Positions 34,514-62,700 of a DNA stretch of 62,989 bases are shown here, piece by piece. Below the pieces are notes generated by a model. That model was not told the DNA's origin. It was given only the letters and a program-made list of their open reading frames with translations, and did no database searches. A program made the translations under genes and the position numbers. The DNA is taken from assembly GCA_052168235.1 (NCBI GenBank), contig JBQLZK010000043.1:1-62989 (forward strand), read 5' to 3'. This DNA is from Thainema sp. (GTDB lineage: Bacteria; Cyanobacteriota; Cyanobacteriia; Phormidesmidales; Phormidesmidaceae). Within the stretch, counting starts at the first letter, position 1; the number at the start of each line of letters is the position of its first letter.

Positions 34514-34517
34514 ATGT

Positions 34518-44093: not shown

Positions 44094-44798
44094 ATGACTT
44101 TACCCAGATCGACAACTGTTGATTGTGACAGCCGTAATCTTTCCCAGTGCGATCGCTGTATTTTGAACTTAATTCAGCAGCGATTAATGCAACCCGATCC
44201 CGAACGACCTGCTTTCAGCCACGAAAAATATAGTCTAAGGCAGTTTAAAAAGTTTTTTGAAGAAATCGGCCTTTTAGTTGTATCAATTGATGGTCAAATT
44301 CAATTTCTAACGCAGCAGGCCGATTATCTACTTCATAAATATGCTTTATTTCATGAATCTCGCACGTTATCAGATTTAATACAGCATTGGTTTAAGTATC
44401 AAGTTGCTCAACGCTTAGCGATGGGTAATGTTCGAGCCTGCAATATTCCACTCACAATTGAAAAAACAGAAGAAAGTTTGGTTATTCGTTTTATTCCTGA
44501 TGAAAGTCGCAATCAATATTTGTTACTGCTGGAAGAACGAGAACTGCGTGGTTTTACAGTTGAATCGCTGGAATTACTTGGCCTTACCCAACGGGAAGCA
44601 GAGGTTCTATTCTGGGTCACTAAAGATAAAAGCAATGCTGAAATTGCCTCTATTTTGGGCTGTAGTAAAGGGACAATTCGAAAACACTTGGAAAACATTC
44701 ATAGAAAGCTAGGTGTACAAACTCGAACGGCTGCTGTGATGACGGCGCTAGAGCGCTTAGGTCTGCTACGAGAACCATTTGTTGCTAATTTGTCATAA
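44094..44798 (+). CDS. LuxR-family HTH regulator
   Basis: LTQREAEVL, SNAEIA and TIRKHLENIHRKLGVQTRT; no receiver domain. Confidence 0.9.
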   Translation: MTLPRSTTVDCDSRNLSQCDRCILNLIQQRLMQPDPERPAFSHEKYSLRQFKKFFEEIGLLVVSIDGQIQFLTQQADYLLHKYALFHESRTLSDLIQHWFKYQVAQRLAMGNVRACNIPLTIEKTEESLVIRFIPDESRNQYLLLLEERELRGFTVESLELLGLTQREAEVLFWVTKDKSNAEIASILGCSKGTIRKHLENIHRKLGVQTRTAAVMTALERLGLLREPFVANLS

Positions 44799-44802
44799 TT
44801 CC

Positions 44803-44848
44803 ATACGCGGATCATCGTATTGTTTCCGCTGCTTACTTTACCTATTTT
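44803..44848 (+). promoter_or_regulatory. Conserved box 1 plus -10-like hexamer
   Basis: ATACGCGGATCATCGTAT-22 nt-TATTTT. Confidence 0.75.
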
Positions 44849-44950
44849 CAAGTTATTGCTGTCAATTCATTTCTCGAAAAATGACGATTTCGCAATACTC
44901 TAATGACAAAAATACAATCCAATAATTATTTGACAAAGAAGAGGTGAACT

Positions 44951-46618
44951 ATGAGTAACCAACGAGAATGGCAGGACAATTTAGCTCTTGGGCAAAATCA
45001 AGTTTTTGAACCTGATCAAAACTATCGAACAAAGGATGAAGATAATAGAACGCTGTTTAACACAGCCACGTTTACTCACGACTATAAACTAGCGCAGGCT
45101 TATGCTAGTGTACGAGTTCTTGAATATCGAGGAGAAGGAGATTTAAAGGTTGAATCCTTTGATGATTATTTAGCTCCTCGCGCCGCTGCTTTAAGAGCAC
45201 GATTCCAATCGATAGAGCATCCTCGCCCGACATTTCCCAGTGATGAAGCCTACCTCAATATGAGAACTCGGCACCACTATCCTTGCGGAGAGGTTTTAAT
45301 CATTGTTGATCAAGCAATTTATGATGCAGTCAGTAAGAGTATTCAACAGTATGTTTTAGACATCGGTCGGGAAGGATACTGGGCTAGTATCTATTCAGTT
45401 AGCGGTGGAGGGCCGCAAGATGTTCGAGGCTTTATTCAACAACATTCCTGTGTTGGGGCTCTACTAATCGGTGCAATTCCAGCACCTTGGTTTGAGCTAG
45501 ATAATGACTTCCATGATCAAAAAACGAGCTTCCCCTGTGATTTATATTATATGGATCGCAATGCTACCTGGAGTGATCCAGATGGTAATGGTAAGTTCAA
45601 TAGTGTCAGTGGTCATGTCGATCCAGAGATTTGGGTAGGGCGGTTATGGACGCCTACTGCTAACGGTAATGATCCGGTCATGATTAATAACTATTTTACC
45701 CGCAATCATGATTTCAGATTGGGCAACCTAGGTCATGCTAATTCTGCTCTAGCTTTTGTAGATGATGACTGGCAAGGTTTCCATGATTGTGCATTTGATG
45801 AACAGTTTTCGTCATCTGCCATTACGACTTACACCAATCCCGACACAACTGATGCTGATTTATACAAAGCCGAAGTAAATTCTCTGCGTTCATGGGTACA
45901 ACTATGTGCTCATTCCTGGACGTATGGACATGCTTTACACGTTCCAGCAGAAAACAAAGATGAATATATTCAAAACAGCTACTTTAAGGATATTAATCCA
46001 CCCAATGCTCACTTCTATAACCTTTTTTGCTGTGGACCAGGTCGCTATACCTCTAGTGATTATTTGGCAGGTTGGTATATTTTTGACAAAGCAGGAGGTG
46101 GCAAAAATCACGGTTTAACCGCTATTGCCAGCGCGAAGTCTGGATCAATGCTCATGTTTGAGGATTTTTATCGTCCTTTAGGACAAGGAGCAGATATTGG
46201 TACCGCTTATCGTCAATGGTGGCAGGCACGAGGGCCATCCCATGATTTGAATGAGCAGCGATGGCATTACGGCATGGTTCTACTCGGTGACCCGACTTTA
46301 ACGTGGTCTAAGGGAGCCGTTCCGACGCTCGAACAGCCAGAAAATGAGAGCGTCTTTGATCATTGGCCCAGAAAGATGCAGTTTCGCTGGTCTCCCGTCA
46401 ACCTACCGAATGTAAAATATCACGTTCAGATTGATTACTTTACCGGGAACTGGGCAGAAGAAACGGGTCGCTCCTGCTTTAATTATCACGATGTTGCGGA
46501 TAACTCGTTAGACTTCAATTTTGTAGGTATGCAGCGGGGACGCTGGCGAGTTCGGGCCAAGGTTAATAACACTTTCTGTAGGTGGTCTCCCTGGTCTTAT
46601 TTCCGCTTTACAGTGTAA
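44951..46618 (+). CDS. Gingipain/C25-like (clan CD) protease with C-terminal beta-sandwich domain
   Basis: CDLYYMD, PEIWVGRL, AH...FCC dyad and VLLGDPTL; GAGG RBS; no signal peptide. Confidence 0.7.
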   Translation: MSNQREWQDNLALGQNQVFEPDQNYRTKDEDNRTLFNTATFTHDYKLAQAYASVRVLEYRGEGDLKVESFDDYLAPRAAALRARFQSIEHPRPTFPSDEAYLNMRTRHHYPCGEVLIIVDQAIYDAVSKSIQQYVLDIGREGYWASIYSVSGGGPQDVRGFIQQHSCVGALLIGAIPAPWFELDNDFHDQKTSFPCDLYYMDRNATWSDPDGNGKFNSVSGHVDPEIWVGRLWTPTANGNDPVMINNYFTRNHDFRLGNLGHANSALAFVDDDWQGFHDCAFDEQFSSSAITTYTNPDTTDADLYKAEVNSLRSWVQLCAHSWTYGHALHVPAENKDEYIQNSYFKDINPPNAHFYNLFCCGPGRYTSSDYLAGWYIFDKAGGGKNHGLTAIASAKSGSMLMFEDFYRPLGQGADIGTAYRQWWQARGPSHDLNEQRWHYGMVLLGDPTLTWSKGAVPTLEQPENESVFDHWPRKMQFRWSPVNLPNVKYHVQIDYFTGNWAEETGRSCFNYHDVADNSLDFNFVGMQRGRWRVRAKVNNTFCRWSPWSYFRFTV

Positions 46619-46645
46619 TGAAGTAAGCTCACTTCAAAGTCGGTA

Positions 46646-46712
46646 AATTATTTTGTGAAAGGTTGAATTTTTAGCCTTTCACAAAATAATTCGGGTTCTT
46701 ACACAAAAACTT
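46646..46712. repeat. Palindromic element, same family as 62828-62926
   Basis: AATTATTTTGTGAAAGG/CCTTTCACAAAATAATT followed by GGGTTCTTA. Confidence 0.7.
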
Positions 46713-46736
46713 GCTATTAGTATAATATTCAAATTT

Positions 46737-46816
46737 GGCGTTGCTTAATCTGGGTATGAATTGTGATGTGGGGGCGGTGCCTCCACATCACAATTCATAC
46801 TTAAAATCAGCAATCC
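46737..46816. mobile_element. Palindromic MITE-like element
   Basis: GGCGTTGCT..GTATGAATTGTGATGTGG / CCACATCACAATTCATAC..AGCAATCC. Confidence 0.65.
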
Positions 46817-46848
46817 CTTCAGATTTATTGCAAAATTGTCATAATGCT

Positions 46849-46894
46849 ATACGCAGATCATCGTATTTTAGCCAGTCAAGATATTTGCCAAAAT
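46849..46894 (+). promoter_or_regulatory. Conserved box 2 plus -10-like hexamer
   Basis: ATACGCAGATCATCGTAT-22 nt-CAAAAT, with TGn. Confidence 0.75.
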
Positions 46895-46959
46895 TAGAGA
46901 TGAAAGAGCGTGTATGCTAAGCCGCTTGAGGTCTACTGTTGGTAGATAGGAGGATCTCA

Positions 46960-47544
46960 ATGTTAGAGCAACCCAAACAGCAGCAAATGCTAACGATTTA
47001 TCTTCAAGAATACAGCAAGCTGAAGGATGAACAGTCTGCTCGAATTGGCTTTCGAGATAATTTGCTCTACGTAACGCTTGGCCTGTTTGGTGGAATTTTG
47101 ACCTTTAGCTTAGGCGAAACGTTAAACCCCTATGCACTTTTAGTTTTACCGTGGGTCAGTCTTATTTTGGGCTGGACATATCTTGTCAATGATCAGAAGA
47201 TTACGGCCATTGGCCGCTACTTACGGTACGGACTAGTCGATAAAGTTCATGCCTTGATTGGTGATGCTGGCCTTGAATCGATCTTTGGTTGGGAGATCGT
47301 CCACAGAAGCGATTTACGACGACAGCGACGAAAACTGGAACAGTTGGTCGTTGATGAGGTGACGTTTGTTCTATCTGGGATCATTGGATTAGTTGTTTTT
47401 GGCTATTTTCTGCATCAGCCATCTTCACTTAATCCTCAGTTGCCGATGATGGCCATTGTATTGCTGATGGGAGTTGAACTCGGTCTGCTGATCATTTTAG
47501 GCATCGAAATTTTTCTGTATGCAGATCTGGCTAAAGGACGCTAG
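46960..47544 (+). CDS. 4-TM membrane protein
   Basis: AGGAGG RBS; EYSKLKDEQSARIGFRDN followed by hydrophobic helices. Confidence 0.8.
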   Translation: MLEQPKQQQMLTIYLQEYSKLKDEQSARIGFRDNLLYVTLGLFGGILTFSLGETLNPYALLVLPWVSLILGWTYLVNDQKITAIGRYLRYGLVDKVHALIGDAGLESIFGWEIVHRSDLRRQRRKLEQLVVDEVTFVLSGIIGLVVFGYFLHQPSSLNPQLPMMAIVLLMGVELGLLIILGIEIFLYADLAKGR

Positions 47545-47558
47545 AGGGAGACGGAATT

Positions 47559-49460
47559 ATGGATCCCCTAATTGATTTTGCGATCGCAACGGCTATCGAA
47601 ATTGAACGACGAGCAGTTTGCCAGATCTTTCAGATAACCGATGACGATCGGGTGTTTGAAGGTTCGCGGGTCTACTGGCGCAAGTCTGTAGCACTGAAAG
47701 ATGGTGAATTCTATGAAGTTGTCGTTGTTCAGTCGCCTGATATGGGCGGAGTCGATTCTGCGCTGCTGATATCCGATACGATTCACCACTGGAATCCAGG
47801 GGCCATTTTGCTGGTTGGAATCGCGGCGGGTGTTGATCGCGCTAAACAGCAATTGGGTGATCTGATAATTGGTCGAGATATCTGTTATTACGAGCGCGGC
47901 AAGCTCACTCCAGAGGGAAAACAGCCTGAGCCAATTATGTATCGGGCTGATTCAACGTTGTGGAGTCGTGTGCAGGCCATTTCGGCTTGGCGTCCCCCGC
48001 CAACCTTGCCCAGACCCGATGGCACATCAGCAGAGCCCAAAATTCACTATAGTGCGATCGCATCTGGTGAAAAGGTAATTGCAGATCCGACAATTCGAGA
48101 TGAAATTACCAGTGGGCACCGCAAGATTGCCGCAATTGAAATGGAAGGCTATGGATTTAGTGCGGCGGCTTGGCAAAGTTTTGATCATATTCGCAGTCTG
48201 GTCATTAAAGCAGTTTGTGATTTTGCTGACACAGAAAAAAGCGATGACTGGCATCTGTATGCAGCCACCGTTGCTGCTAGCTTTGCGTACCATTTTTTAC
48301 AGGATCGACCGCTAGAGCCACGTAATGCCCCTCATCGGTCACCTCCAGCACCTAGTCAATATAAACCTATCATTAATCAATTAAAATTTGGCAATATTGT
48401 GCCTTTTTTGGGGCCAGGAATTAATCCAAATTTATATGTTCAGCTAGCCGCACAATTAGGTCAGTCAATTGAAGATAATCTTGTACATGATCCGAGCTGG
48501 CAGCCATCAGCAAAGCCAAATATTATTCAGCGGCTGATTGGTATGCCGTGTCAAGCTTGCTACTACTTACCCGATGAGCGACCTAAAGAATGCCCCATGC
48601 TGCTTGGTATAGAAAGAGCTCAGCACTGTCCATTATTTATTGAACAGCAGCTAGCAGTTGCCAAAATGAACCTACGCTACCTTTCACAGTACTACAAATT
48701 AACGAATAGTTTAAATACATTCTATGCTCAGTTTTATGACATATTTGAAACAACACAGGGCTCTCCAAATTCAGTTCATCGCTTCTTTGCTGAACTACCA
48801 TTTTTGATGAAGCATAAAGGCTATCCTAATCGTTATCCAGGTTTGCCCTATCAGCTAATTGTAACAACAAATTATGACAACTTGTTAGAACAGGCATTTG
48901 ATAAGATTTACCAACCTTATGACGTTATTTATTATATTGCCGATGGAGATAATCGGGGCAAATATAAGCATCGGTCTTATCAATCCGAAGTAGATGAAAT
49001 CATTGATGATCCTAAAAATTACGATGATCAACTGCCGCTTCGTAAACCGTGGGGGCGTTCGCGGGAACCTCGACCAATTATTTTGAAGCTCTATGGAACA
49101 TGGGAAAATAATTTTGTTGTAGCCGATGATCATCTGATCTATTTGGCTAGCAGTCCGATTCAAAATTTGCCGCCCAGTTTATTTAGAATTCTGTACGAGT
49201 CCAGCGCTTTATTCTTAGGATACAGCCCCAATGATTCTGACTTGCAACTGATTGTTCATCGACTTTGGCAAGATAAACCGCTGCCGGGTGGCTCGCGATT
49301 GATCCATCACTGCCAACCGGGAGAAATTGAGCAAAAAATTTGGCAAGAACAGAGAAATACAGAATTGATTGCGACTACTTGTTCACCAGAAGAATTTGTG
49401 GCTTCGTTGCGACAGGATATTGAAGATTTAGCGCCAAGAATTGCAGAATTCACCAGATGA
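47559..49460 (+). CDS. PNP/MTA-SAH nucleosidase fused to SIR2-like domain
   Basis: PNP motifs VGIAAG, IASGEK, IEMEG and CDFAD; SIR2 motifs PFLGPG, TTNYD, KLYG and FLGYS. Confidence 0.85.
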   Translation: MDPLIDFAIATAIEIERRAVCQIFQITDDDRVFEGSRVYWRKSVALKDGEFYEVVVVQSPDMGGVDSALLISDTIHHWNPGAILLVGIAAGVDRAKQQLGDLIIGRDICYYERGKLTPEGKQPEPIMYRADSTLWSRVQAISAWRPPPTLPRPDGTSAEPKIHYSAIASGEKVIADPTIRDEITSGHRKIAAIEMEGYGFSAAAWQSFDHIRSLVIKAVCDFADTEKSDDWHLYAATVAASFAYHFLQDRPLEPRNAPHRSPPAPSQYKPIINQLKFGNIVPFLGPGINPNLYVQLAAQLGQSIEDNLVHDPSWQPSAKPNIIQRLIGMPCQACYYLPDERPKECPMLLGIERAQHCPLFIEQQLAVAKMNLRYLSQYYKLTNSLNTFYAQFYDIFETTQGSPNSVHRFFAELPFLMKHKGYPNRYPGLPYQLIVTTNYDNLLEQAFDKIYQPYDVIYYIADGDNRGKYKHRSYQSEVDEIIDDPKNYDDQLPLRKPWGRSREPRPIILKLYGTWENNFVVADDHLIYLASSPIQNLPPSLFRILYESSALFLGYSPNDSDLQLIVHRLWQDKPLPGGSRLIHHCQPGEIEQKIWQEQRNTELIATTCSPEEFVASLRQDIEDLAPRIAEFTR

Positions 49461-49480
49461 CTTGGTAAGGAGTAAACGCG

Positions 49481-52400
49481 ATGACATCTAATCACAGTAT
49501 CCCCCAAGCATCTGCCAACGATAATCAGGCCAATAATCAAACTAATAATCAAACCAACAATAATGGTCTAACCGATAATAGTGCTGCTGCTGCTTCGGCT
49601 CAACCTGAAGTTTCTGCAGCATCAACTGTGCGATCGCAAACAACACAGTCGGCACAAACAACACAGTCATCACAAGCAGCACTATCAGCCACTTCATCAT
49701 TTCCTAAAAGCCCGTATAAAGGCTTAAATCCCTATGCTGCAACCGATGCAGAGCTGTTCTTTGGTCGAGCCAGGGAAACGCAGCGCATTGTCAATAATCT
49801 GTTAGCTTGGCGGTTAACTGTGCTGTATGGCGAAAGTGGCGTTGGCAAAAGCTCAGTGCTGCGAGCTGGCGTCACCCATGCGTTACAAGAAGAGGCACAG
49901 GACAATCTCGACGATTTTGGTGTGCCTAAGCTAGCCGTTGTCGTTTTTCCGCCGCTACATGGGGAGCGTTTTTGGCAGCAAGATCCGCTACAGAGTTTAG
50001 CGCAGCAAATTGACGAAGATATTCGCCAGAACTATTGGCCAGTTGAGCCACCGGAACCAGGCTTGTCATTTGTGGAGATGCTGCGAGTTTGGACAGAACG
50101 TTTAGGGGGTGAGCAGCGAGATGGTCGCCTATTCATTATTCTGGATCAGTTTGAAGAATATTTTTTGTATCATCCGCAGAATTCACAGGAGAGCGATTTA
50201 GTTACTGCGATCGCACATGTCGTTAATTTGCCTGATCTACAGGTTAACTTTTTGATTTCTCTGCGTGAAGATTCCTATGCCAAACTTGATCGGCTGAGGG
50301 GGCGTCTTCCTAACATATTGGACGTCTGCTTGCACATTGAGCATTTGGATAAACAGTCAGCCTATGATGCCATTACTAAGCCCATTGAGCGCTATAACGA
50401 GCACCAGCCACCTGCACAGAAGATCGACATATCAGCCGATTTAGTAGATGCCATTTTACAAGGCATTCCACAGATCGAAGAGTACAACAGCAACGGAAGG
50501 GCCGGGGTCGAAAAACTCAAAAATCTTCGTAAGAACCAGATTTTGGCTCCTTATCTACAGTTGGTTATGATGCGCCTTTGGGACGAGATGGTGCAAGTGC
50601 GATCGCATGATCTTAGCCTAGAGACATTAATCAATCTGGCCGAATCAGAAACTCCAGATCAAGTTACCAAAATTAGGGCTGCTATTCGTCGGCTAAAAAC
50701 ATCCATACATTGGGCAGATCAAAATGCCCGTGATCAAAATACTCACGATCAAAATACCCAGATTAAGAGAGCTGTCCGCCGAATTGTGCGTGAGCATGTC
50801 ACCACAACGATGGATGCATTATCTCAGCCGGAAAAAGATATTGCTGCCCGGAGCTTTCAATATTTAGTGACTCCATCAGGAACTAAATATGCCTATTCTG
50901 CAACAGATTTAGCCAATTTAATGGGCCGTAATCCAGAATCCGTCATTGCTTTACTAATGAAGCTCGCTCAAAATAAACGTATCATTCGTCCAGTTGGGCC
51001 TTCTCAGGAGCAACCTAATGTTCAGCGATATGAGATTTTCCACGACTTCTTAGCTCAGGCCATTCTCGGTTGGCGAAGAAACTACCTCGAAGAAAAGAAA
51101 AGAAAAAGTAGAATCCAGAAGTCTATTGTTCTAGTGGCAGGCTCCTTTGCTTGCGGTCTCTTCCTACTCAGTCTTTCTGCTTACCATTATCAACAAAGAA
51201 TTAATTGGCTGATTGCAGTGTCAAATGAGTCTATTCAGAAGTTTCATTCAGGTCAACAACTGCTCGCATTACAAGATGCAATAATAGCTGGGCAAGGAAT
51301 CAAGGAGCGCAGTGAAAATAATTTTTTAAAGTATATTTTGCTCAGCCCATCTAAAAGGACAGATGCTGTTAATTTAGCAAAAGAAAATTTGCAGAGTATC
51401 CTAACCCAAATTCAATTACAGCGTTATTATTCAGCTCCTACTGATCAAACGCTTCAGACTGTGTTAAGTCCAGATTGGCAAGTAGTTGCTGTTGTACTAG
51501 CAGATGGCTCTCTTCAGATTTGGGATCAACAAACAGGTGAACTGCTGCACACATTGCGCCAGACATCTGAGAAAACCTTAGCATTACGTTTCAGTTCTGA
51601 TAGCAAGATGTTGGCAGCTGTATTTTTAGATGGAACGATACGTCGTTGGGATTGGCAAAATGGCACTGAACTGGCTCACATCAAAACATTAGAATCACCT
51701 AATCGAGTATTGATGGCTGACTTCAGTGGGGATGGCCAAACACTAGCTGTAGCCTCAACTCATTCTGTATCTGCTGAAGATGTGACGGTGCAATTATGGG
51801 ATTGGCAAGCGGGTACTCCCTATGCTGCCATTCAGCCTTCAGGTTCTTTATCCAGCCTGAAAGTTGGTTCTGATGGACAAACCTTAGTAACGACTTCTAC
51901 TGTTTCCAACAAGACCGATCCTCTTGCTGCTGCAACATCTATCATTCAGCTCTGGAATGGCAAGACTGGTATCGAACAGGCCCAATTCGAGACCGAAAGC
52001 CGCCCCTCGAATCTAGTGTTGAACAATGATGGAAATGTCTTTGCATTTTCCACAGATGATGGCACGGTTGAGCTTTGGGATTTACAAGACAGAGAGTATT
52101 TAAAAGCATTTAAACCTTACGATTTGATTCTGAATCAAATACAGAGCCTGAGCTTTAATCCAGATGGTAGTCTTCTAGCCATTGGTTTTCAAAACGGTCA
52201 GGTTAAGTTATGGGATTGGCAAGACGACAAATTACAGAATCAAATCCAAATGTCAGAACCTGTAAATGATCTAGTTTTTGATCCAACCGGACAGCAAATC
52301 GCAACTCTCTTGAGTCGCAAACATCTTAGTTTTTGGCGTTTGCAATCTCCTGTGACAGCGATGTCAATAAACTCATTTAAAGCATTGGATCGCCTTGGCG

Positions 52401-53338
52401 AACTACGCCTTAGTCCTAATAGCGAGCAAGTCGCTGCTTTATCCTGGCTAGATGGCACGATTCAGCTTTGGAACATAGCAGATCAAAAACTATCAGCTGA
52501 GTTCAATCCAAATGGTCGGGTACAAGATTTTCACTTTAGCCCTGATGGTCAAACGCTTGTCACAGCCTCGGATGATCACTTGGTGCAGCGCTGGAATTTG
52601 CAAGGCAGTCTGATTGATCAGTTTAAGATGCCTAACAGCATAAGATCAGTCAGCTTCAGCCCTGATGGCCAACAGTTATTGACAACGTTAAATGATACTA
52701 AATTAGTGCAGGTCTGGGATTTGCAGGGTATTAAGCGAGCCCAAGTTAATCCCTCCGGTAATGTACTAGCAGCTGACTTTAGTCCTGATGGCCAGTTATT
52801 AATAACTCTCTCAGATAATGGCTCAGTCATATTGCAACTTTGGGATTTGCAGGGGAACGAGCTAGCCCAGTTCAATCCATCGGGTACTACACTAGCAGTT
52901 AACTTTAGTCCTAAAGATCAAATCTTGACAACTGCATCTGATAGCGGTTTTGTACAGTTCTGGAATTTACAAGGTCAGGAGCAAACCCGTTTCAAAGTAG
53001 CGGATGCCATTCGCACAATTAGCTATAGTCCTGATGGTCAGACTTTAGCAACCGCAACTTTCAATAATGATACTGTACAGCTCTGGAATTTGAAGGGCGA
53101 CGAACAAGGTCAATTCAAGGCACCTGGAATAGTTCTAGATTTGCAGTTTAGTATCGATGGCAAATCCCTGATCGCAACATCCCAAAATGGCTTTGTAGAG
53201 CAGTGGCAACTAAATAGCACAAGTTTAGACAGTTTAATTCATCAAGGTTGTGATTGGCTACAGCCTTATTTAGCCAGTCATCCTGATAAAGCACAGGATC
53301 TTCCTTGTCAGTTTAATACTAGTAATCTGTCAAAGTAG
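49481..53338 (+). CDS. nSTAND1-type NTPase - TM - WD40 repeat protein
   Basis: PYKGL, FFGR, GESGVGKSS and IILDQFEE; one TM; many FSPDG..LWD repeats. Confidence 0.9.
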   Translation: MTSNHSIPQASANDNQANNQTNNQTNNNGLTDNSAAAASAQPEVSAASTVRSQTTQSAQTTQSSQAALSATSSFPKSPYKGLNPYAATDAELFFGRARETQRIVNNLLAWRLTVLYGESGVGKSSVLRAGVTHALQEEAQDNLDDFGVPKLAVVVFPPLHGERFWQQDPLQSLAQQIDEDIRQNYWPVEPPEPGLSFVEMLRVWTERLGGEQRDGRLFIILDQFEEYFLYHPQNSQESDLVTAIAHVVNLPDLQVNFLISLREDSYAKLDRLRGRLPNILDVCLHIEHLDKQSAYDAITKPIERYNEHQPPAQKIDISADLVDAILQGIPQIEEYNSNGRAGVEKLKNLRKNQILAPYLQLVMMRLWDEMVQVRSHDLSLETLINLAESETPDQVTKIRAAIRRLKTSIHWADQNARDQNTHDQNTQIKRAVRRIVREHVTTTMDALSQPEKDIAARSFQYLVTPSGTKYAYSATDLANLMGRNPESVIALLMKLAQNKRIIRPVGPSQEQPNVQRYEIFHDFLAQAILGWRRNYLEEKKRKSRIQKSIVLVAGSFACGLFLLSLSAYHYQQRINWLIAVSNESIQKFHSGQQLLALQDAIIAGQGIKERSENNFLKYILLSPSKRTDAVNLAKENLQSILTQIQLQRYYSAPTDQTLQTVLSPDWQVVAVVLADGSLQIWDQQTGELLHTLRQTSEKTLALRFSSDSKMLAAVFLDGTIRRWDWQNGTELAHIKTLESPNRVLMADFSGDGQTLAVASTHSVSAEDVTVQLWDWQAGTPYAAIQPSGSLSSLKVGSDGQTLVTTSTVSNKTDPLAAATSIIQLWNGKTGIEQAQFETESRPSNLVLNNDGNVFAFSTDDGTVELWDLQDREYLKAFKPYDLILNQIQSLSFNPDGSLLAIGFQNGQVKLWDWQDDKLQNQIQMSEPVNDLVFDPTGQQIATLLSRKHLSFWRLQSPVTAMSINSFKALDRLGELRLSPNSEQVAALSWLDGTIQLWNIADQKLSAEFNPNGRVQDFHFSPDGQTLVTASDDHLVQRWNLQGSLIDQFKMPNSIRSVSFSPDGQQLLTTLNDTKLVQVWDLQGIKRAQVNPSGNVLAADFSPDGQLLITLSDNGSVILQLWDLQGNELAQFNPSGTTLAVNFSPKDQILTTASDSGFVQFWNLQGQEQTRFKVADAIRTISYSPDGQTLATATFNNDTVQLWNLKGDEQGQFKAPGIVLDLQFSIDGKSLIATSQNGFVEQWQLNSTSLDSLIHQGCDWLQPYLASHPDKAQDLPCQFNTSNLSK

Positions 53339-53341
53339 AGA

Positions 53342-53404
53342 TGAGGGGTAGAAGAATTTTGAAAATATCGCGTCGCGATATTTTTAAAATTCTTCTACCC
53401 CTCA
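53342..53404. terminator. Long hairpin between convergent genes
   Basis: About 31-bp arms with one mismatch. Confidence 0.75.
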
Positions 53405-53439: not shown

Positions 53440-53856
53440 TTAATTGCTGTCGCAGTCACTATTACAAGGAGCAGGTGTTTGACTCAGTATGGTGTTAGTG
53501 CGGGTATCAACAATCTCATCAAAACAAATTGTTGATCCATCTACAGAGATTAAAACTCGCCGAAACAATGTGTAGTTGTCTAACCAGCGTTGGCAAAGAA
53601 TTGTACGGTTTTCTGTAGGATACAGTTGCGCTACAGCCTGAGATCCATTTGTATTTATTGGGCACTGACTCTCTTGTTTATCCAACGAGAGAAAATGTGG
53701 CTTCTGTTCTAACAAATCGGAATAAGGCTGTAGGTTGTCAATGTTAATCGCAGTATTATGAGCAACTGATTGAGGCGCTGTAGCCACCCATAAGCACGCG
53801 GAACACAAAATTGGGATAGCGACCCTAATGGTGTTGTCAGTCATATCAATCACCAC
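53440..53856 (-). CDS. Small hypothetical Cys-containing protein, probably exported
   Basis: Signal-like N-terminus ending SVA; several Cys. Confidence 0.55.
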   Translation of the reverse strand: MVIDMTDNTIRVAIPILCSACLWVATAPQSVAHNTAINIDNLQPYSDLLEQKPHFLSLDKQESQCPINTNGSQAVAQLYPTENRTILCQRWLDNYTLFRRVLISVDGSTICFDEIVDTRTNTILSQTPAPCNSDCDSN

Positions 53857-54079
53857 CTAGTTCGAGTATAAACCCTATGTAAAAAGCACAAGAGTTGCTG
53901 ATATCAATTAAAAGCATACCAAGCCAACTTTATCCTTATCTTTATCGTGGCATACAAATTGATTAGTTATTTATAATCAAAATAATTATTTAAGAGACAA
54001 AATTTGAGCTTATTTGACTGGTTTGGTAATAAAAAATACAGCTTGTACTGGTGGTTTATTGCGATCGCGTCATATTGAT

Positions 54080-54125
54080 ATACGCAGATCATCGTATTTC
54101 GTCTAGCTGATATTTTTGCCAAGAT
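54080..54125 (+). promoter_or_regulatory. Conserved box 3 plus -10-like hexamer
   Basis: ATACGCAGATCATCGTAT-22 nt-CAAGAT, with TGn. Confidence 0.75.
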
Positions 54126-54217
54126 CGTTGAGTGGGGACAGTTTGAGATTCTAGTCTTGTCCTTCCCTTGCAGTTTATACCTTGTACCTTAGTTAACAAC
54201 TGTTAATCAGGAGGCGC

Positions 54218-56059: not shown

Positions 56060-56081
56060 TTTTGGATGACTCTAAAAGCGC

Positions 56082-56126
56082 AATTACTTGTGTTGTTGAA
56101 ATCGGATTTTCACAACACAAGTAATT
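56082..56126. terminator. Intergenic hairpin
   Basis: AATTACTTGTGTTG/CAACACAAGTAATT arms. Confidence 0.55.
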
Positions 56127-56184
56127 ACTAGAACAGCACTATAAACTTATTTGTCAATTCTTTCATCAATAAGAGGCAACTACA

Positions 56185-57312
56185 ATGACTGCAAAGTCTT
56201 TACCGAACAAAAATTCTGTTGAAAAGCGTTGGACTTTTCTAGCCTATATAGCTGGCGATAATAATTTAAGTAATGCCGGTCTTGAAGATATCCAAGAACT
56301 ATGTGATGAAGGCGCATCACCCGATGTGTATGCAGGGGTAGAGATTGACACGTATGGGGAGTTTTCTGGTTCGATTCGATATGAAATTACTGAACCAGAT
56401 TTCTCGGGAGAAGCTCACCGAACCGTAATTGAGCGACTACCAGAGAAAGACTCTGGCGATCCAGAATCGTTAACCTCTTTTCTCACATGGGGTTTATCAA
56501 GGTATCCGGCTCAAAACCAGGTTGTTGTTATTTGGAACCACGGTTCAGGATTTAGATACAGGAATCGAGATATTGGCTTTGATGACTTCGGTTCATCGTT
56601 AGATATGCCCGAGGTTGAAATGGCATTTCGGCGGGCCGGTATTACGGCTGAGAACAAAGTCACTATTCTGGGCTTTGATGCATGTTTAATGAATATGCTT
56701 GAAATTGCACATCATCTTCGCGATCAGGCTGAATTTATTGTTGGTTCACAAGAAACTGAACCAGGCGATGGCTGGCCCTATGACAAAGTTTTAAGGACTA
56801 TGAAATCTGCCACTTCAGGTGTTGAGCTTGCAAAAGGAATTGTTCAAGAATACATCAAAGACTATACCGATCTTGGCGTTCAGAATGTAACACAGTCCGC
56901 GATTGATACTTCGAAGACAGAAGCTGCAGTTCAAGCATTCAGTAATTTGGGGCTGCTTCTTAAGGATAAAGTAGAAACCTGCAAATCGGAATTGAGAAGA
57001 TTACGGGCGCAGTTACAAGCCTTTGAATATGCAGACTATGTCGATCTGGTTCATCTAGTTGAGCTATTACCTCAGTTTATCAATGAACCAGATGTTGCTC
57101 AAGCAGCCGAAAACGTTCGCTTAGCTGCACTAGCTTGTGTTGTTGCATCAGATAAATATGGTCAAGCGGTGCAGAATGCAAATGGTTTATCGATTTGGTT
57201 TCCACCTGCTCCCCGAATTTATTTTAACTATCGAGCAAAATATACAGCGTTGAATTTCGCCCTTAATTCGCCTGGATGGGTCAGTTTTTTAGATGCCTAT
57301 TTTGCGAATTAG
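56185..57312 (+). CDS. Clostripain-family (C11) cysteine protease
   Basis: YIAGDNNL, WNHGSG, GFDACLM and GSQETEPGDGWPY motifs. Confidence 0.9.
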   Translation: MTAKSLPNKNSVEKRWTFLAYIAGDNNLSNAGLEDIQELCDEGASPDVYAGVEIDTYGEFSGSIRYEITEPDFSGEAHRTVIERLPEKDSGDPESLTSFLTWGLSRYPAQNQVVVIWNHGSGFRYRNRDIGFDDFGSSLDMPEVEMAFRRAGITAENKVTILGFDACLMNMLEIAHHLRDQAEFIVGSQETEPGDGWPYDKVLRTMKSATSGVELAKGIVQEYIKDYTDLGVQNVTQSAIDTSKTEAAVQAFSNLGLLLKDKVETCKSELRRLRAQLQAFEYADYVDLVHLVELLPQFINEPDVAQAAENVRLAALACVVASDKYGQAVQNANGLSIWFPPAPRIYFNYRAKYTALNFALNSPGWVSFLDAYFAN

Positions 57313-57347
57313 TTAATTTTTGATTTTTGATTATTCTAGTGACTTTC

Positions 57348-57376
57348 GTAGGGATATGACGACGTCGTATCCCTAC
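57348..57376. repeat. REP-like GTAG palindrome
   Basis: GTAGGGATATGAC-GAC-GTCGTATCCCTAC. Confidence 0.6.
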
Positions 57377-57482
57377 AGCAAGCGATTTGAAGATTCAAAA
57401 ATTTGTATCATTTTCATATCATTCTCAGTTTTGTAAGGTCAGGATATTTTACACATCAAACCAATCAAGTAGAGAATAGAAA

Positions 57483-59096
57483 ATGGAAGAGTCAAAAAAG
57501 CTTTCTAAAACACAGCAGAATATTCCAACATCGAAAGAATCACCTTTTCGCTCTATACCGAGCGAATGGTTAGGGGGATATTTCATCGTAGAACATAGCA
57601 TTTGTGGAAATCGAGATGTCCCTAACGCAGATGACGATGTGTGGGGATTTGTTAATAATCGGGCAGATTGGCAAGGAAAAAACTTTGTATACGCAAACCG
57701 AAACGTTTGGGCTACCGATTTTCAAAGTAATTCTGACTACTATTCAGTACCCAGTTTGCCCAACGGTTATGATGGGGTTGATGCCGTTCATATTGCTTAT
57801 ATCCATACTCATGGAGGTACGGATATTAATACAAACATCTTTTACTTATCTATGGGTGGAAACCCTAGCCACGGCGGTTGTCAAGTGAGATCGCAAGACA
57901 TGCGCTTGGGCAATAACAAACTCCGCTATCTGTTCTTGATTGCCTGCCAATCGGTTCAGACAAACCCGATTCCTGTTTGGGGAAGCGCATCTCAAGGTAT
58001 TCGTGCTTTCTTTGGTTTCCACACCAATGCATTAGATGCTGCGAGCTACGGAAAGAAATTTTTTGAGAAGTGGAAGTCTTCTAATAGCGCCAAGACAACC
58101 GATGCCTTCCTGGATGCGAGTTGGGATGTTAGTCATGAGCAAATTGCTGTTACTGCATGGTGCGGGCCTGATCTCGCTACAGCCTGTAATTATCGCGATC
58201 AGGAAACGCATTTTCAGATCGCTCCGGTAACCTGTGGGGCTATGGCTTGGGCACATACAGCTATTCGTGCTTTGCCGAGCCGCTCACGAATGGCAAGTGC
58301 TCCTACGGCGATCATTCAGTTCAGAAAGCCTGAACCGGAACCTCATCGGCTCTTCAGGATGACGGGGCGCGATCCGGTAGCCACTGAGCCAATTAGCCAA
58401 GAACCCTCTAGCGACTTGTATGAATGCTATACCTACGGTGAAGCAACCTTGCTGTATAACAAAGCTTCAGGTGCCACTGATTTGCGAATTTCTACGACGA
58501 ATACCGCTATGGCAGCAGAATTGAGTGATGAAGAAGCGATTGAACTAGCTCAGTCTTATCTTCAGCAAAATCCGAGCTTGCTAGCAACCATACAGCCTCG
58601 TGCGGCGGATATGGCTTATGAACTTGTTCCAGTTGCGATTCGAGATACCGTCAAAGGGAGCGGAGAGATAGATGCACCTGAAAATTCTGTAGAGACACGG
58701 ACTGAAGTAACAGTTGTGTTCCGGCCTATGATTGGCAACATTCCCACAATTGGGACTGGCGGAGTGCTTGAAATTACGCTAAATGGCGATAGACAAGTAG
58801 TCAGAGTCCGTAATGTGCTGCGCGAGATTGCAACTGTAGAGCGGCGTAACGGTGAATATGATGTCAGCCGCTTGCAGGCAGAAGCTGAACGGCGAGCCTT
58901 GGCAGAAGTTAATAGTGAACCCAGAATCGATCGCTGCGAAATTCTCAAGACAGAATTTGGCTTCTTTTCTGCTGATGCTAGCACGGCTCAAGACTCAGCA
59001 CGCTTGGCTTTCCGCATTCTATTGGAAGTTCAAAGTGGCGATTTTGAACAGTGGATTGAAAAGATTTATTACCTAGATGATTTGTCAGAAAGCTAG
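57483..59096 (+). CDS. DUF6345-like protein, probable caspase-fold protease domain
   Basis: DAVHIAYIHTHGG...LGNNKLRYLFLIACQ His-Gly/Cys pattern. Confidence 0.6.
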   Translation: MEESKKLSKTQQNIPTSKESPFRSIPSEWLGGYFIVEHSICGNRDVPNADDDVWGFVNNRADWQGKNFVYANRNVWATDFQSNSDYYSVPSLPNGYDGVDAVHIAYIHTHGGTDINTNIFYLSMGGNPSHGGCQVRSQDMRLGNNKLRYLFLIACQSVQTNPIPVWGSASQGIRAFFGFHTNALDAASYGKKFFEKWKSSNSAKTTDAFLDASWDVSHEQIAVTAWCGPDLATACNYRDQETHFQIAPVTCGAMAWAHTAIRALPSRSRMASAPTAIIQFRKPEPEPHRLFRMTGRDPVATEPISQEPSSDLYECYTYGEATLLYNKASGATDLRISTTNTAMAAELSDEEAIELAQSYLQQNPSLLATIQPRAADMAYELVPVAIRDTVKGSGEIDAPENSVETRTEVTVVFRPMIGNIPTIGTGGVLEITLNGDRQVVRVRNVLREIATVERRNGEYDVSRLQAEAERRALAEVNSEPRIDRCEILKTEFGFFSADASTAQDSARLAFRILLEVQSGDFEQWIEKIYYLDDLSES

Positions 59097-59192
59097 TTTT
59101 TGCGATCGCACTTTTCTAATCGGCACCTCTCTACTCGCTAAACCTATCTCATAGCCAATCAGAACTCCACACCCTACACATAGGAGGCTGAG

Positions 59193-61472
59193 ATGTCAGT
59201 TCCATTTTTTGATGAAGAATTTACTTTCACCCAACCCGATGGCACACAGTTTCAAGCCAAAGGCTGGGGCGACCAGCACTACGCAATTTTTGAGACGCTT
59301 GATGGCTTTACCATTGTGCAAGATCCGGAAACCGGATTTTACTGCTATGCGAGAGCCAATGAAGACGCGAGTGAATTAGAATCAACAGGTGTCAAAGTCG
59401 GTTTAGTCGAACCGAGTAACTTAGCTCTCAGTCCTCATACTCGGCTGAATCCCAGTGTAGCGAAAGAAAGAGCCTTGCAAGCAGCAGGCCAGATGGAATT
59501 GAAGCGGCGTTGTGAAGAACGACGCGAGCAAGCCAAGCAGAGACTTCGACAATCGCTGCGTGCAACAGGCCCTCTAGCGGCTCCTCCGGGTCGTCAAATC
59601 CAAGGTCAGTACGTAGGCCTATGCCTCTTGATCCAGTTCCCCGATGTGCCTGGAACAATTTCCCAGCAGGAGGTGAGTGACTTCTGCAACAAACCGGGCT
59701 ACAGCGGCTACGGCAATAAGGGATCGGTGTATGACTATTTTTACGACAATTCCGAGGGCAAATTAGAGTACACCAACCTGGTGACGACCTACTATACCGC
59801 TAAGCAGCCACGTGCTTACTATACCAATGAAGCGATTGAGCAGGGGACGCGAGCCAGGGAGCTGATCAAAGAAGGGCTTGCGGAATTAAAGCGTCAGGGC
59901 TTTGATTTCAGCACTTTAAGTGTTGATGATCAGGGATATATCTATGCCGTCAATGTGTTCTATGCCGGACCTCGCGTCAACAATTGGGCTCAAGGGCTGT
60001 GGCCTCATGCTTGGTCTCTCGCTCAACCCTATGAGCTAGCTCCGGGCAAGCAAGCGTTTGACTACCAAATTACCAACATGGGTAGCGAACTGTCACTTGG
60101 AACGTTTTGCCATGAAAATGGGCACATGCTGTGTGACTATCCCGACCTCTACGACTATGGCGATCAGTCCAGTGGAGTGGGCCATTACTGCCTAATGGGG
60201 TACGGTGGTTCCGATAAGAAAAACCCAGTTCAGATTGGGGCTTACTTAAAATACAAGTCGGGCTGGGCGAATCCGCTGACGCTGATTCAGCAAAACGTAC
60301 AGGAGGCGACGATCGCAGCAGGAAAAAATGACTTTTTTCTCTATCCAAAACATCAAGCAGAATACTTTATCATCGAGAATCGGCAGAAAGCTGGGCGTGA
60401 TGCCGCCTTACCCAGCAAGGGATTGGCGATTTGGCATGTCGATGAATTGGGCAGCAATGATCATGAGCAGATGACGGCTTCCCTACATTATGAATGCTCG
60501 CTCGAACAGGCTGACAATCAGTTTGATTTGGAACATCACCTCAATCCTGGGGATGCGGGAGACTTATTTGCCAAAGACAAACTGTTTTCTAGCATTACTA
60601 GCCCCAGCAGCAACTGGTGGGATGGTACTCCATCGAGGCTGACGATTTGTGACATCAGCGAAGCTGGCTCACCGATGACCTTCCGGGTGCAGATTGGGGA
60701 TGATGAGGGTGAAACCCAGCTGTTCCAGGCTACCTCGACCCCGGCCCAGGATATTCCTGATAATAGTCAGGTTGGCATTCGGGATGGCATTCGGTTTACA
60801 GAAGCTGCGATCGCAACTTCGATCAAAGTTAGCGTGGATATTACCCATCCTTATCGAGGCGACCTGCGCGTGACGCTCTCCAATCCTCTCGGTCGAGCAG
60901 TCGTGCTACACGATCGGCTAGGTGGGCGGGAGGATGACCTGAAGCGCACGTTTGATCTAACATCCAGTCCAGCTTTGCGGAACTTTCTGGGCCAATCGCT
61001 ACAGGGTGAGTGGGTGCTGCACGTACAAGACCTGGCTCCGTCTGATGTGGGTCGCTTCAACAGTTGGAGTTTAGCAATTGAAGGAAAGGTCAAGGGTGGA
61101 GCGGTAATTGCTCTTGAGGAGTCCCCTGGAGTCGATATTCCCGATAACGATCCGGTTGGCATTGAACGAACCCTAACCGTTGAGACTGCGGGGCCAATGA
61201 AAGAGGTCGAGGTGAGCGTGGACATCACCCACACCTATGTCCAGGATTTAATCGTGACGCTGATCTCGCCACAGGGCACAAAGGTGGATCTGCATCATCG
61301 CAGCGGTGGCGCAGCGGATAACATCATCAAAACCTATACCCTGCAAACCACGCCGGGTCTGCAACAGCTCATTGGGCAGTCCATACAGGGTGGATGGGGA
61401 CTAAAAGTGGTTGATGTTGCGAGCCAAGATCGCGGCAAGTTGAACCGCTGGTCACTGAAGCTGAAACGGTGA
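59193..61472 (+). CDS. M6 (immune inhibitor A-type) metalloprotease with two proprotein-convertase P domains
   Basis: TQPDG pro-region, CHENGH..PDLYD, YFIIENR and two DITH.Y..DL repeats. Confidence 0.9.
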   Translation: MSVPFFDEEFTFTQPDGTQFQAKGWGDQHYAIFETLDGFTIVQDPETGFYCYARANEDASELESTGVKVGLVEPSNLALSPHTRLNPSVAKERALQAAGQMELKRRCEERREQAKQRLRQSLRATGPLAAPPGRQIQGQYVGLCLLIQFPDVPGTISQQEVSDFCNKPGYSGYGNKGSVYDYFYDNSEGKLEYTNLVTTYYTAKQPRAYYTNEAIEQGTRARELIKEGLAELKRQGFDFSTLSVDDQGYIYAVNVFYAGPRVNNWAQGLWPHAWSLAQPYELAPGKQAFDYQITNMGSELSLGTFCHENGHMLCDYPDLYDYGDQSSGVGHYCLMGYGGSDKKNPVQIGAYLKYKSGWANPLTLIQQNVQEATIAAGKNDFFLYPKHQAEYFIIENRQKAGRDAALPSKGLAIWHVDELGSNDHEQMTASLHYECSLEQADNQFDLEHHLNPGDAGDLFAKDKLFSSITSPSSNWWDGTPSRLTICDISEAGSPMTFRVQIGDDEGETQLFQATSTPAQDIPDNSQVGIRDGIRFTEAAIATSIKVSVDITHPYRGDLRVTLSNPLGRAVVLHDRLGGREDDLKRTFDLTSSPALRNFLGQSLQGEWVLHVQDLAPSDVGRFNSWSLAIEGKVKGGAVIALEESPGVDIPDNDPVGIERTLTVETAGPMKEVEVSVDITHTYVQDLIVTLISPQGTKVDLHHRSGGAADNIIKTYTLQTTPGLQQLIGQSIQGGWGLKVVDVASQDRGKLNRWSLKLKR

Positions 61473-61487
61473 TGGAGGAAAAGGGCG

Positions 61488-61790
61488 ATGTTTAGAGGAT
61501 TTCGTCGTCGGTGGCGATGGGTCATGTTAGGTGCGATCGCAGGTTTGGCAATCCTTCTGTCTGCACTAATTTCGCATCCTAGTCCAGCTCAGCCATCATC
61601 ACCCAACCCAACCTCCGTTGATCAGCCAACTATTAACCAGCCCACGATTGACCAGCCAGCCCATAATTCATCATCGTTTCTGCTGGCGCATGGTGTCGAT
61701 ATTCGCGATCCCATTTGCGATGTCTACCCTAATACACCTTATAAGGTTGCGTCATCAAGGAGGCACATCGGTGAAAGGTACAACAATTAA
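61488..61790 (+). CDS. Hypothetical signal-peptide protein, possibly a fragment
   Basis: Basic and hydrophobic N-terminus, QPTI repeats; overlaps the next start. Confidence 0.4.
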   Translation: MFRGFRRRWRWVMLGAIAGLAILLSALISHPSPAQPSSPNPTSVDQPTINQPTIDQPAHNSSSFLLAHGVDIRDPICDVYPNTPYKVASSRRHIGERYNN

Positions 61791-62700
61791 AAATCTACCG
61801 CTGATTAAGGTGGTGGATGGTGACACGATTAAAGTTCGCTTAAACGATGGGTCGGAATCAATTCGCTTTGTTTGTCTCGATACCGAAGAAAGCCAGCGAG
61901 GCGGCAGTAAACCCGTTACCAATGCGGGCATTCTCGCTTCTAAATGGGCCAAAACCTACTTTGGTGCGGATGACGCAGGTTTACCGACCGGGGATGTGCG
62001 GGTCGATTTGGAATTTGACACCAATGATCCGGTAGATGTGTGTCTGCGTAAACATCGCGGCAACTACGGTCGATTAATTTGTTATGTCTACAAAGCAGGA
62101 GAACCAGAGAACTTTAACGTACGAATTGTGCGTGAAGGCTGGAGCCCTTACTTTGTCAAATATGGGCGTTCCCGTCTCTATCATCAGCAGTTTGTTGCAG
62201 CGGAGATGGAGGCGCAGGCTAAGGGACTAGGAATTTGGAATCCCGCTACAAATGCAGGTGGCAATACTAGGGATTACAGCATGCTGATTCCCTGGTGGCA
62301 TCTACGCGATTCCGTTGTGCAAGACTATCGCTATACGGGCGATCAGTCTGGGGCGCTGTCGGTGCGAATCAATTACGACGACATCGTCGCAGCGGCGCGG
62401 GCAGAGCAGGAGCTGACCGTCTTATGTGATTTGCAAGGGGGGATCAATAAGTGGCCCGGTAATGGTGCTCTGATTTATGCCGGATCGCCGTTCCAGAAGT
62501 TTAATCTCTGGATTCCTGAGCGAGATTCAGCAACGGCTCAAACAATTTTGCGTTTAATTGAAACTCGCTATGCTAAGACTGGTCGGGGTTACGTCTATGT
62601 ATCTGGCACGGCTAGTTTGTATCCGCCAACGGCGGATGGTAATCCGCAAATGGTGCTGACAGCAGTTGAACAACTGGCTGACTTTCCGCCAGGAAGCTAG
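61771..62700 (+). CDS. Thermonuclease (SNase) family protein with C-terminal extension
   Basis: VVDGDT, IRFVCLDTEE, YGRLICYV and AQAKGLGIW; AGGAGG before GTG at 61771. Confidence 0.88.
   Translation: MKGTTIKNLPLIKVVDGDTIKVRLNDGSESIRFVCLDTEESQRGGSKPVTNAGILASKWAKTYFGADDAGLPTGDVRVDLEFDTNDPVDVCLRKHRGNYGRLICYVYKAGEPENFNVRIVREGWSPYFVKYGRSRLYHQQFVAAEMEAQAKGLGIWNPATNAGGNTRDYSMLIPWWHLRDSVVQDYRYTGDQSGALSVRINYDDIVAAARAEQELTVLCDLQGGINKWPGNGALIYAGSPFQKFNLWIPERDSATAQTILRLIETRYAKTGRGYVYVSGTASLYPPTADGNPQMVLTAVEQLADFPPGS

Follow-up and report, generated by a model that had tools for sequence, protein, structure and literature searches.

In a 62,989-nt stretch of the cyanobacterium Thainema sp. (GenBank assembly GCA_052168235.1, contig JBQLZK010000043.1, positions 1 to 62,989; hereafter the window), a gene for a short LuxR-family regulator (luxR) is followed by three forward gene groups, each headed by a copy of one promoter-like element with an 18-bp dyad at its core. 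The element is real and conserved, occurs six times in the host genome and accompanies the short luxR gene in other genomes. It is apparently undescribed, and it combines an unusual cassette architecture with striking cargo, cargo being the genes that follow the element. We consider it probable, at about 70%, that the six sites are weak class II promoters, activated by a dimer of this LuxR protein bound to the dyad. Binding, activation over repression, the start sites and co-induction are what we infer from the sequence.

Occurrence of the element

Exact search placed the 18-mer ATACGC(A/G)GATCATCGTAT on the forward strand at 44803, 46849 and 54080 of the window, where the first-pass annotation of this DNA had reported it; no further match with three or fewer mismatches was found elsewhere in the window. 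None of 100 dinucleotide shuffles of the window reached three matches (mean 0.05). The same annotation had described a −10-like hexamer 22 nt after each dyad, a first copy situated 4 bases after the luxR stop codon, which ends at 44798, and a forward gene group behind every copy; all of this was confirmed, the hexamers being TATTTT, CAAAAT and CAAGAT (Table 1). Its remark that two hexamers are preceded by TGn holds for copies 2 and 3 of the window but not for the family, as TG is present in 6 of 48 dereplicated copies. A repeat finder run on the window returned a longer repeat family, of 71 nt, and the 18-mer is the core of an element of ~70 bp that comprises an upstream block, the dyad, a TTG and the −10 hexamer.

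The host genome contains six copies of the element: the three in the window and those at C66:19884 (+), C135:1456 (−) and C135:5471 (−) on two other contigs. When a matrix built from the six sites was run over the 7.5-Mb genome, the six scored 54–63 bits and the next best site 15. Scatter of the box across the genome, which had been raised as a point to check, was not seen: the box occurs at these six sites only and every one of them heads genes. Outside the window these are a papain-like protease, a carboxypeptidase plus trypsin-like unit (the trypsin label was assigned by eye) and a 199-residue protein of unknown function. All six copies keep the A and T of the −10 hexamer, and their flanks are only 27–29% identical. 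The proposal that the regulon consists of the island's three units is thus supported for those three, each of which is headed by the element, but too narrow, since three more elements lie on other contigs.

The three segments that carry the element have a G+C content of 42–47%, versus 50% genome-wide, and 4.0–7.8 HIP1 sites per 10 kb, versus 11.9 genome-wide (8963 octamers in the genome), as expected for acquired DNA. The ends of C135 are repeats common to many contigs. An 18-kb island had been claimed for the window; its three element-headed groups stand, but its limits are not sharp because DNA of low G+C content is also found at 32–39 kb. Hairpins at 46741–46813, 53342–53404 and 62827–62927 were considered as relatives of the element and rejected; they are dispersed repeats with 84, 33 and 241 BLAST rows, respectively.

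Scanning GTDB genomes for exact matches to a 28-letter pattern yielded 97 stretches, and titles were obtained for 80. Among these 80, 79 have cyanobacterial titles, including the mat-forming, soil-crust and bloom-forming Microcoleus, Pleurocapsa, Xenococcus and Microcystis. The remaining one is a Rhizobium bin with a G+C content of 47% and two HIP1 sites, which may be misbinned. In a metagenome scan with the single LuxR protein, two loci were found, both with the element. In lake metatranscriptomes, contigs covered the cargo of a Microcystis locus (L110) in 4/4 runs and its luxR in 3/4; these contigs give no start, strand or level, and may derive from library DNA.

Anatomy of the element

Numbered from the first base of the dyad, the element consists of the block (−25 to −1), the dyad (1 to 18), the TTG (18 to 20) and the hexamer (41 to 46). 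We aligned 94 distinct elements, gathered from the GTDB scan, from additional loci and from the host genome, 48 of which remained after dereplication at 88% identity; the elements are related by duplication, many come from one genus, and the 48 are not independent. Columns from 20 on lie outside the search pattern. At these unsearched columns, A42 and T46 were each present in 46/48 elements and both in 45/48; at other offsets the median for an A and T pair was 3/48, and the runner-up offset reached 26/48. The 22-nt spacing between dyad and −10 is therefore conserved in relatives at columns that the search pattern did not constrain. Further conserved columns are A45 (42/48) and the G of TTG, G20 (40/48), and a pyrimidine-purine step occupies columns 52/53, the predicted −1/+1, in 37/48.

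In sigma-70-type −10 sequences, the −11 A and the −7 T are the most conserved bases. The A42/T46 pattern is what would be expected of such a −10, here apparently located 17 bp from a partial −35 (TTG). Counted from a predicted start at ~53, the dyad extends from −52 to −35 with its centre at −43.5, the TTG is at −35 and the A and T are at −11 and −7. This is the geometry of a lux-box-type (class II) promoter, that is, a dyad of 18–20 bp near −42 that touches the −35 and is followed at a fixed distance by a −10.

The conserved stretch begins ~25 nt 5′ of the dyad. In copies that follow luxR, the conservation of this block was 0.88 where the luxR frame reads through (n = 37) and 0.87 where it stops early (n = 9); in copies that do not follow luxR it was 0.86 (n = 40). 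Because it is equally conserved in all three classes, the block is a feature of the DNA, and coding constraint on the luxR tail was rejected as its cause. The right half of the block is a loose repeat of the right arm of the dyad, 22 bp upstream. At L051, L109, L111 and L247, a 16-nt dispersed repeat has inserted at the left edge of the block; it displaces the luxR stop without disrupting the element.

The element accompanies the short luxR gene

Of the 94 elements, 54 directly follow a luxR-like 3′ end (within 90 nt). This set had been found by the box; the search was therefore repeated from the protein side, which gave 35 matches in 301 genomes, and 30 loci were examined. Besides the window's gene, all nine short-type genes have the element at the same 3′ place (eight clear dyads and one degenerate), and the 400 nt that follow each of 21 longer or more distant LuxR genes, and each of six paralogues of the host genome, contained no element. 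The short family is patchy, being present in 9/301 genomes. In the same 301 genomes, the element pattern with three or fewer mismatches was matched in 34; we scored 30 loci, leaving out G505 and G536, and most three-mismatch matches among them were noise. True elements were found in all nine genomes with the short gene and in two others, G630 and G571.

Within one genus of 61 genomes (g45), the element is present in 28/28 genomes with the short gene, in several also at unlinked sites, and 32/61 have neither. The exception, G666, has one element match, 288 nt from a contig start. A reversed pattern used as a control gave no matches in this genus. As kin are not independent, no P value is given for this co-occurrence. 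Overall, box and LuxR subfamily co-occur whether the search starts from the DNA or from the protein.

A LuxR protein without the sensor domain of its relatives

According to a structural model (pLDDT 77), the short LuxR comprises an N-terminal helix with cysteines, a PAS-like domain and a GerE/LuxR helix-turn-helix (HTH). Its membership of the LuxR/GerE HTH family is supported by a PF00196 score of 63.8 bits, against a cut-off of 23.5, and by a structure match to GerE with a TM-score of 0.86 by target length. We collected 1224 homologues of 128–410 residues. In alignments with paralogues of 375–410 residues, the short forms begin at the last helix of an extra N-terminal domain; aligned in this way, the short LuxR thus lacks the sensor domain found in the longer proteins. 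A quick tree places 25 short forms in one clade (SH-aLRT 99), and two rows called short by length alone fall elsewhere. Among 39 intact short genes, the ratio of nonsynonymous to synonymous substitution rates had a median of 0.14 for the HTH and stood at 0.30 for the PAS part, the pairs not being independent. Cysteines 11, 19, 22 and 190 are kept in 35, 42, 47 and 50, respectively, of 50 rows, and redox or metal input through them is possible. Many loci, L016, L019 and L024 among them, carry a short LuxR whose N-terminus differs and by eye resembles the HTH with which cyanobacterial NB-ARC proteins start; no other part of the gene is as labile as this end.

The modelled extra domain of the long paralogues gave CviR as its top Foldseek matches, and also DhaR and phytochrome GAF-PAS; the long paralogues have no Pfam match to an autoinducer or GAF domain. 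The same bipartite site is found upstream of them in divergent orientation. An exact TACG-N8-CGTA occurs within 300 nt 5′ of 6/19 long paralogues (four or fewer of 300 shuffles each), and in 11/19, two of them poor, the best site is 83–101 nt from the start codon and points away from it. Exact dyads are confined to the tree branch nearer the short clade, and L087, whose HTH is the most similar to the short type, carries an exact short-type element. In G630 (L213:10932–16001), two convergent long LuxR genes each have an outward element, and a third element precedes an SpvB/TcdB-RHS-like gene. This suggests that the long forms control toxin-like cargo, and loss of a gene from such a convergent pair could have yielded the gene-then-promoter order of the short type.

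Amylase DNA occurs 5′ of 8/32 short luxR genes, and in five it ends just before the start. Amylase being itself element-headed cargo, the arrangement may reflect a feedback loop in the ancestor or a circularly permuted unit. In L165, however, the amylase gene is intact and no element precedes it. In the DNA 5′ of these 32 genes, a motif search turned up amylase relics and A+T-rich words but no other shared regulatory word. In the window, an 11-bp perfect inverted repeat (43978–44010) lies ~85 nt 5′ of the luxR start; it was not seen before other short luxR genes.

Cargo of the element

Forward genes after elements fell into 89 clusters. We scanned 59 representatives and four further proteins against Pfam, the 30 remaining clusters being short or housekeeping-looking. 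Matches were obtained for 32 of the 63 proteins scanned, and 15 of these are peptidases (C1, C25, S1, S8, S9, S51, M4, M8, M14, M28, M64). Other cargo includes an I42 inhibitor, an amidase, a patatin, a nuclease and an amylase, with M6, C11 and S41 peptidases from further scans. In a crude hydrophobicity test, none of the window's three proteases nor its amylase had a signal-like stretch, and 2/16 other cargo proteins scored above 2.3. Among the window's genes, those for the amylase, DUF6345, M6, nuclease and C25-like proteins are found again as cargo at other loci. Three recurring families without a Pfam match are represented by L142:799–1407 (~130–200 residues), L113:5436–5939 (140–170 residues) and L106:1752–2708 (310–320 residues); for the first of these, the ESM Atlas returned unnamed clusters only.

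The 555-residue protein of cassette 1 had no match in Pfam or among PDB sequences. It belongs to an ESM Atlas cluster (0.99) in which 64% of members carry Peptidase_C25, and candidate catalytic His and Cys residues, seen by eye, are conserved in its L070 homologue, which is 83% identical and has its own element. In cassette 2, the PNP and SIR2-like protein also matches the PADLOC PDC-M60C and PN-superfamily effector models. Homologues of the first gene product, a membrane protein, occur in 24/300 other genomes, and an element precedes them at 0/23 loci with enough upstream DNA, including four in which a close PNP homologue follows. The SIR2/STAND unit is therefore a local recruit. It had been proposed that one promoter serves the window's three units: the element does head each of them, but among the loci examined the SIR2/STAND unit is under it only here.

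Weighing activation by LuxR against the alternatives

Several observations weigh against activation of a downstream promoter by LuxR. The upstream block contains a hexamer, CATAAT (0.90–0.98 conserved per base), that fits a −10 better than the downstream hexamer does, and a promoter scan chose it at copy 2 rather than the downstream CAAAAT. A second promoter-like match (46698–46726, 10/12) lies 5′ of element 2; such matches are no commoner than in shuffles. The downstream hexamer of L087 lacks the T. The short protein has lost its sensor domain. Finally, in the one-contig genome G571, an element precedes each of three genes (S8, S41 and amylase), and luxR survives only as a 36-residue relic; elements can thus persist after the regulator is lost, or some other factor can read them. 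At L217:5309–7258 of this genome, the element that follows a luxR relic has a 4-nt duplication between block and dyad; it is an orphan promoter in decay and, in effect, a phasing mutant made by nature.

Among the alternatives, the one that survives best, and that we still hold to be unlikely, has the same LuxR acting with opposite or double logic: CATAAT would be the working −10, transcription would start inside the dyad, and LuxR would repress it or switch between two starts. In back-to-back ancestors, the block could moreover have been the regulator's own promoter on the other strand. Besides the conservation of CATAAT and its choice by the promoter scan, this account draws on the TG that precedes CATAAT in copies 1, 2 and C66, and on the fixed 83–101-nt distance to the long genes, which fits overlapping divergent promoters. 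The first base of CATAAT, however, stays C (0.96), where sigma-70 prefers T, whereas the downstream hexamer is typical in that only its A and T are held, and it stands 17 bp behind the TTG and 7 nt ahead of the pyrimidine-purine step. If a repressor were lost, the cargo would stay on, yet the 32 genomes of genus g45 without luxR are also without the element. Furthermore, two loci (L136 and L143) keep the dyad and the downstream spacing without the block.

We regard as improbable that the element is primarily an integron- or att-like recombination site at the 3′ end of luxR, with arrays of site-specifically inserted cassettes. Cassette content and order do vary between close strains: the order is luxR-A-C in L068 and luxR-C-A-E in L090, and the Microcoleus loci contain the same few cassettes in differing subsets and orders. 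Cassette 1 is found elsewhere with its own element, and a luxR relic lies upstream of 9/39 elements that do not follow luxR, though not of window copies 2 and 3. The orders luxR-element-amylase and amylase-luxR are both represented, which is what circular or tandem intermediates would produce. Against this, no recombinase was found among 38 neighbouring protein clusters read by eye, relic length varies between zero and hundreds of bases without a constant crossover point, and there is no conserved fold on either strand. A recombination site would leave the −10 pattern and the divergent copies at the long paralogues unexplained, and homologous recombination between repeats of 70–100 bp would probably suffice for the shuffling. 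A dif/Xer or loxP-like site was rejected because its arm spacing and orientation, judged by eye against the consensus, do not fit.

We likewise give little credence to a real promoter that is read by another factor, be it a global regulator or an alternative sigma factor, with luxR hitch-hiking. The elements of G571, a genome with no intact family member, speak for this, and in some long-form loci the left half of the block resembles what we take to be half an NtcA site. The 22-nt spacing to the −10 is also that of an NtcA-activated promoter, but the NtcA site, GTA-N8-TAC, is present in 0/48 elements and NtcA was rejected. Within a genus, presence and absence of the element follow the short luxR, unlinked sites included, and the quality of the dyad follows the regulator tree; both argue against another factor. 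The WYL regulator at 38191–39060 was set aside as binder, as it was not found beside the element in other loci.

A structured RNA leader is very improbable: the dyad can form a 5-bp hairpin and an A+T-rich hairpin follows in some copies, but the mean folding z-score was +0.26 with 1/48 below −2, the top covarying columns are not complementary, the consensus fold reaches only −1 to −2 kcal/mol, and Rfam gave no meaningful match, only chance microRNA matches.

Comparison with known systems

The element regulon would work like a lux-box regulon, although by definition it is not a quorum-sensing LuxR or LuxR-solo system, an NtcA-type system or an integron. The comparisons that follow draw on excerpts of the cited articles. 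Lux boxes are centred at −42.5 (PMC4471428), and the LuxR solos OryR and XccR activate an adjacent pip peptidase gene (PMC4338825, PMC4471428). Like these systems, the one described here has a LuxR-type HTH, a palindrome of ~20 bp near −42.5, an adjacent peptidase target and no synthase beside it; the modelled N-terminal domain of the long paralogues also resembles the ligand-binding fold of CviR. A quorum-sensing LuxR or solo is defined by an N-terminal autoinducer-binding domain with six TraR residues (PMC4338825). In the short LuxR, Pfam detected no autoinducer-binding domain, which places it outside that definition. The dyad arms differ from the CT-N12-AG of las and pip boxes as excerpted; further differences are the extra upstream block, the promoter placed behind the gene and repeated in cassette arrays, and the cyanobacterial host.

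In overall plan (PAS plus LuxR HTH) and size, the protein resembles VqmA of Vibrio cholerae and its phage homologue, with best Foldseek E-values for the model of 2.3e-6 to 1.5e-5. Unlike VqmA, from which it differs with 17–18% identity and a whole-chain TM-score of ~0.27–0.30, it would target hydrolase cassettes and not a small RNA. The likeness is one of fold only and gives no evidence for a DPO-like ligand; VqmA itself is described as integrating several cues (PMC7387800). PedR and Rre1 are likewise cyanobacterial proteins with a LuxR-type HTH, and PedR is controlled through a cysteine; as far as the excerpt goes, these two, a small protein and a response regulator, differ in motifs and architecture and have housekeeping targets (PMC13421787). 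Cassette 2, with STAND NTPase, WD40, PNP and SIR2-like parts, resembles NTP-dependent conflict systems, but nSTAND1, SIR2 and this promoter are not mentioned in the excerpted text (PMC7159879), and at other loci the unit has no element.

Variable arrays of accessory genes, set apart by a repeat and standing beside a fixed gene, are shared with integrons. Here, by contrast, the fixed gene encodes a transcription factor, and the repeat lies 5′ of each cassette and is promoter-like. No integron tyrosine recombinase was found beside the array in the window or among the 38 neighbour clusters, and folding analysis of the elements revealed no attC-like folded, covarying single-strand site. In the openly accessible literature, searched in full text and judged by title and start of abstract, no description of the element and its LuxR was found.

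Proposed mechanism and purpose

We propose that a dimer of the 234-residue PAS-like and HTH protein would bind the 18-bp dyad centred at ~−43.5, abutting the partial −35 (TTG), and would recruit RNA polymerase as lux-box activators do; a weak −10 (nAnnAT) follows the TTG after 17 bp. The 25-bp upstream block may be a second protein site, for a second dimer two helical turns away or for a co-regulator. One luxR gene would then switch on six units together, the window's three and those on C66 and C135. The short subfamily probably arose once, from a longer sensor-PAS-HTH regulator placed divergently to this promoter. The promoter, often copied along with a decaying 3′ piece of luxR, would have spread and collected cargo, giving cassette arrays that differ between strains; the SIR2/STAND unit would have been drawn in locally.

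The purpose is speculative; we tentatively favour an emergency digestion programme that acts on lysis or causes it, as a defence against grazers, parasites or predators or as self-digestion of damaged cells. We prefer it because most of the cargo enzymes are leaderless and jointly attack protein, DNA, starch, lipid and peptidoglycan; the main alternative is export by a non-classical route for scavenging. More doubtful is the wider idea that the sensor-truncated LuxR is the master switch of a self-digestion or anti-predator programme whose promoter doubles as a capture point for effector genes. By such capture, a gene that lands behind a promoter copy would join the regulon, and the repeats would shuffle cassettes without an integrase.

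The system offers a complete, testable regulon read from sequence alone, with one regulator, one operator-promoter, predicted starts and dozens of targets, and overproduction of luxR should reveal the role of the leaderless proteases, nuclease, amylase, lipase and wall hydrolases. It is an example of regulon growth by promoter copying; in this strain a conflict module (SIR2/STAND) has joined. It also supplies a predicted binding motif for an unstudied sensor-PAS-LuxR family. If activator and promoter form a tight pair, they are a candidate expression switch for cyanobacteria. According to a 2021 review, the execution pathways of regulated cell death in cyanobacteria are largely unknown (PMC7965980, excerpt); a self-digestion or anti-predator switch, if true, would contribute a defined regulator and a target list.

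Features of the window

Table 1. Regulator, elements and cargo genes in the window
Feature	Position	Strand	Evidence or remark
Short LuxR-family regulator, 234 residues	44094..44798	+	Pfam GerE 1.1e-17; model; Foldseek best match VqmA
Upstream block, element 1	44778..44802	+	Overlaps last six luxR codons and stop; block conservation
Dyad copy 1, predicted LuxR dimer site, centre ~−43.5	44803..44820	+	Exact match; alignment
Core promoter 1 (predicted)	44820..44855	+	TTG 44820–44822; −10 44843–44848; inferred start ~44855
Cassette 1: 555-residue C25 (gingipain-like) cysteine protease candidate, no signal peptide	44951..46618	+	
Element 2	46824..46901	+	Block 46824–46848; dyad 46849–46866; −10 46889–46894; predicted start ~46901
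Cassette 2 gene 1: membrane protein, no known family	46939..47544	+	Likely start ATG 46960 after GGAGG
Cassette 2 gene 2: PNP-phosphorylase and SIR2-like, 633 residues	47559..49460	+	Pfam PF01048, PF13289
Cassette 2 gene 3: nSTAND1 NTPase and WD40 repeats, 1285 residues	49481..53338	+	Pfam PF20703, PF00400
Element 3	54055..54132	+	Block 54055–54079; dyad 54080–54097; −10 54120–54125; predicted start ~54132
Cassette 3: alpha-amylase family hydrolase, 613 residues	54218..56059	+	Element-headed cargo also at L138, L217
Clostripain (C11) family protease, 375 residues	56185..57312	+	Pfam scan
DUF6345 protein, 537 residues	57483..59096	+	Recurring cargo (L054, L059, L216)
M6 metalloprotease with two P-domains, 759 residues	59193..61472	+	Homologues directly after luxR and element in L025, L085, L166
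Staphylococcal-nuclease-family protein, 309 residues	61771..62700	+	GTG start matching homologue starts; open frame from 61618

Two small open reading frames inside the island have signal-peptide-like starts and no link to the element: 53440–53856 (−), which has no Pfam match, and 61488–61790 (+). Repeated HIP1-centred A+T-rich boxes occur at 32567–33551, 41792–41826 and 43588–43617, and the intergenic region at 32.5–33.6 kb contains duplicated stretches of 50–66 nt, ~700 nt apart. In low-G+C DNA at 33725–39060, a reverse-strand trio encodes a 280-residue membrane protein, a 751-residue E2-E1-JAB fusion and a 379-residue metallo-beta-lactamase-like protein. It faces the divergent WYL regulator and looks like a ubiquitin-like defence locus, with no cyclase in view. 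RsbR/RsbS/RsbT-like stressosome genes and two hybrid kinases, all labelled by eye, occupy 21764–28612 (−).

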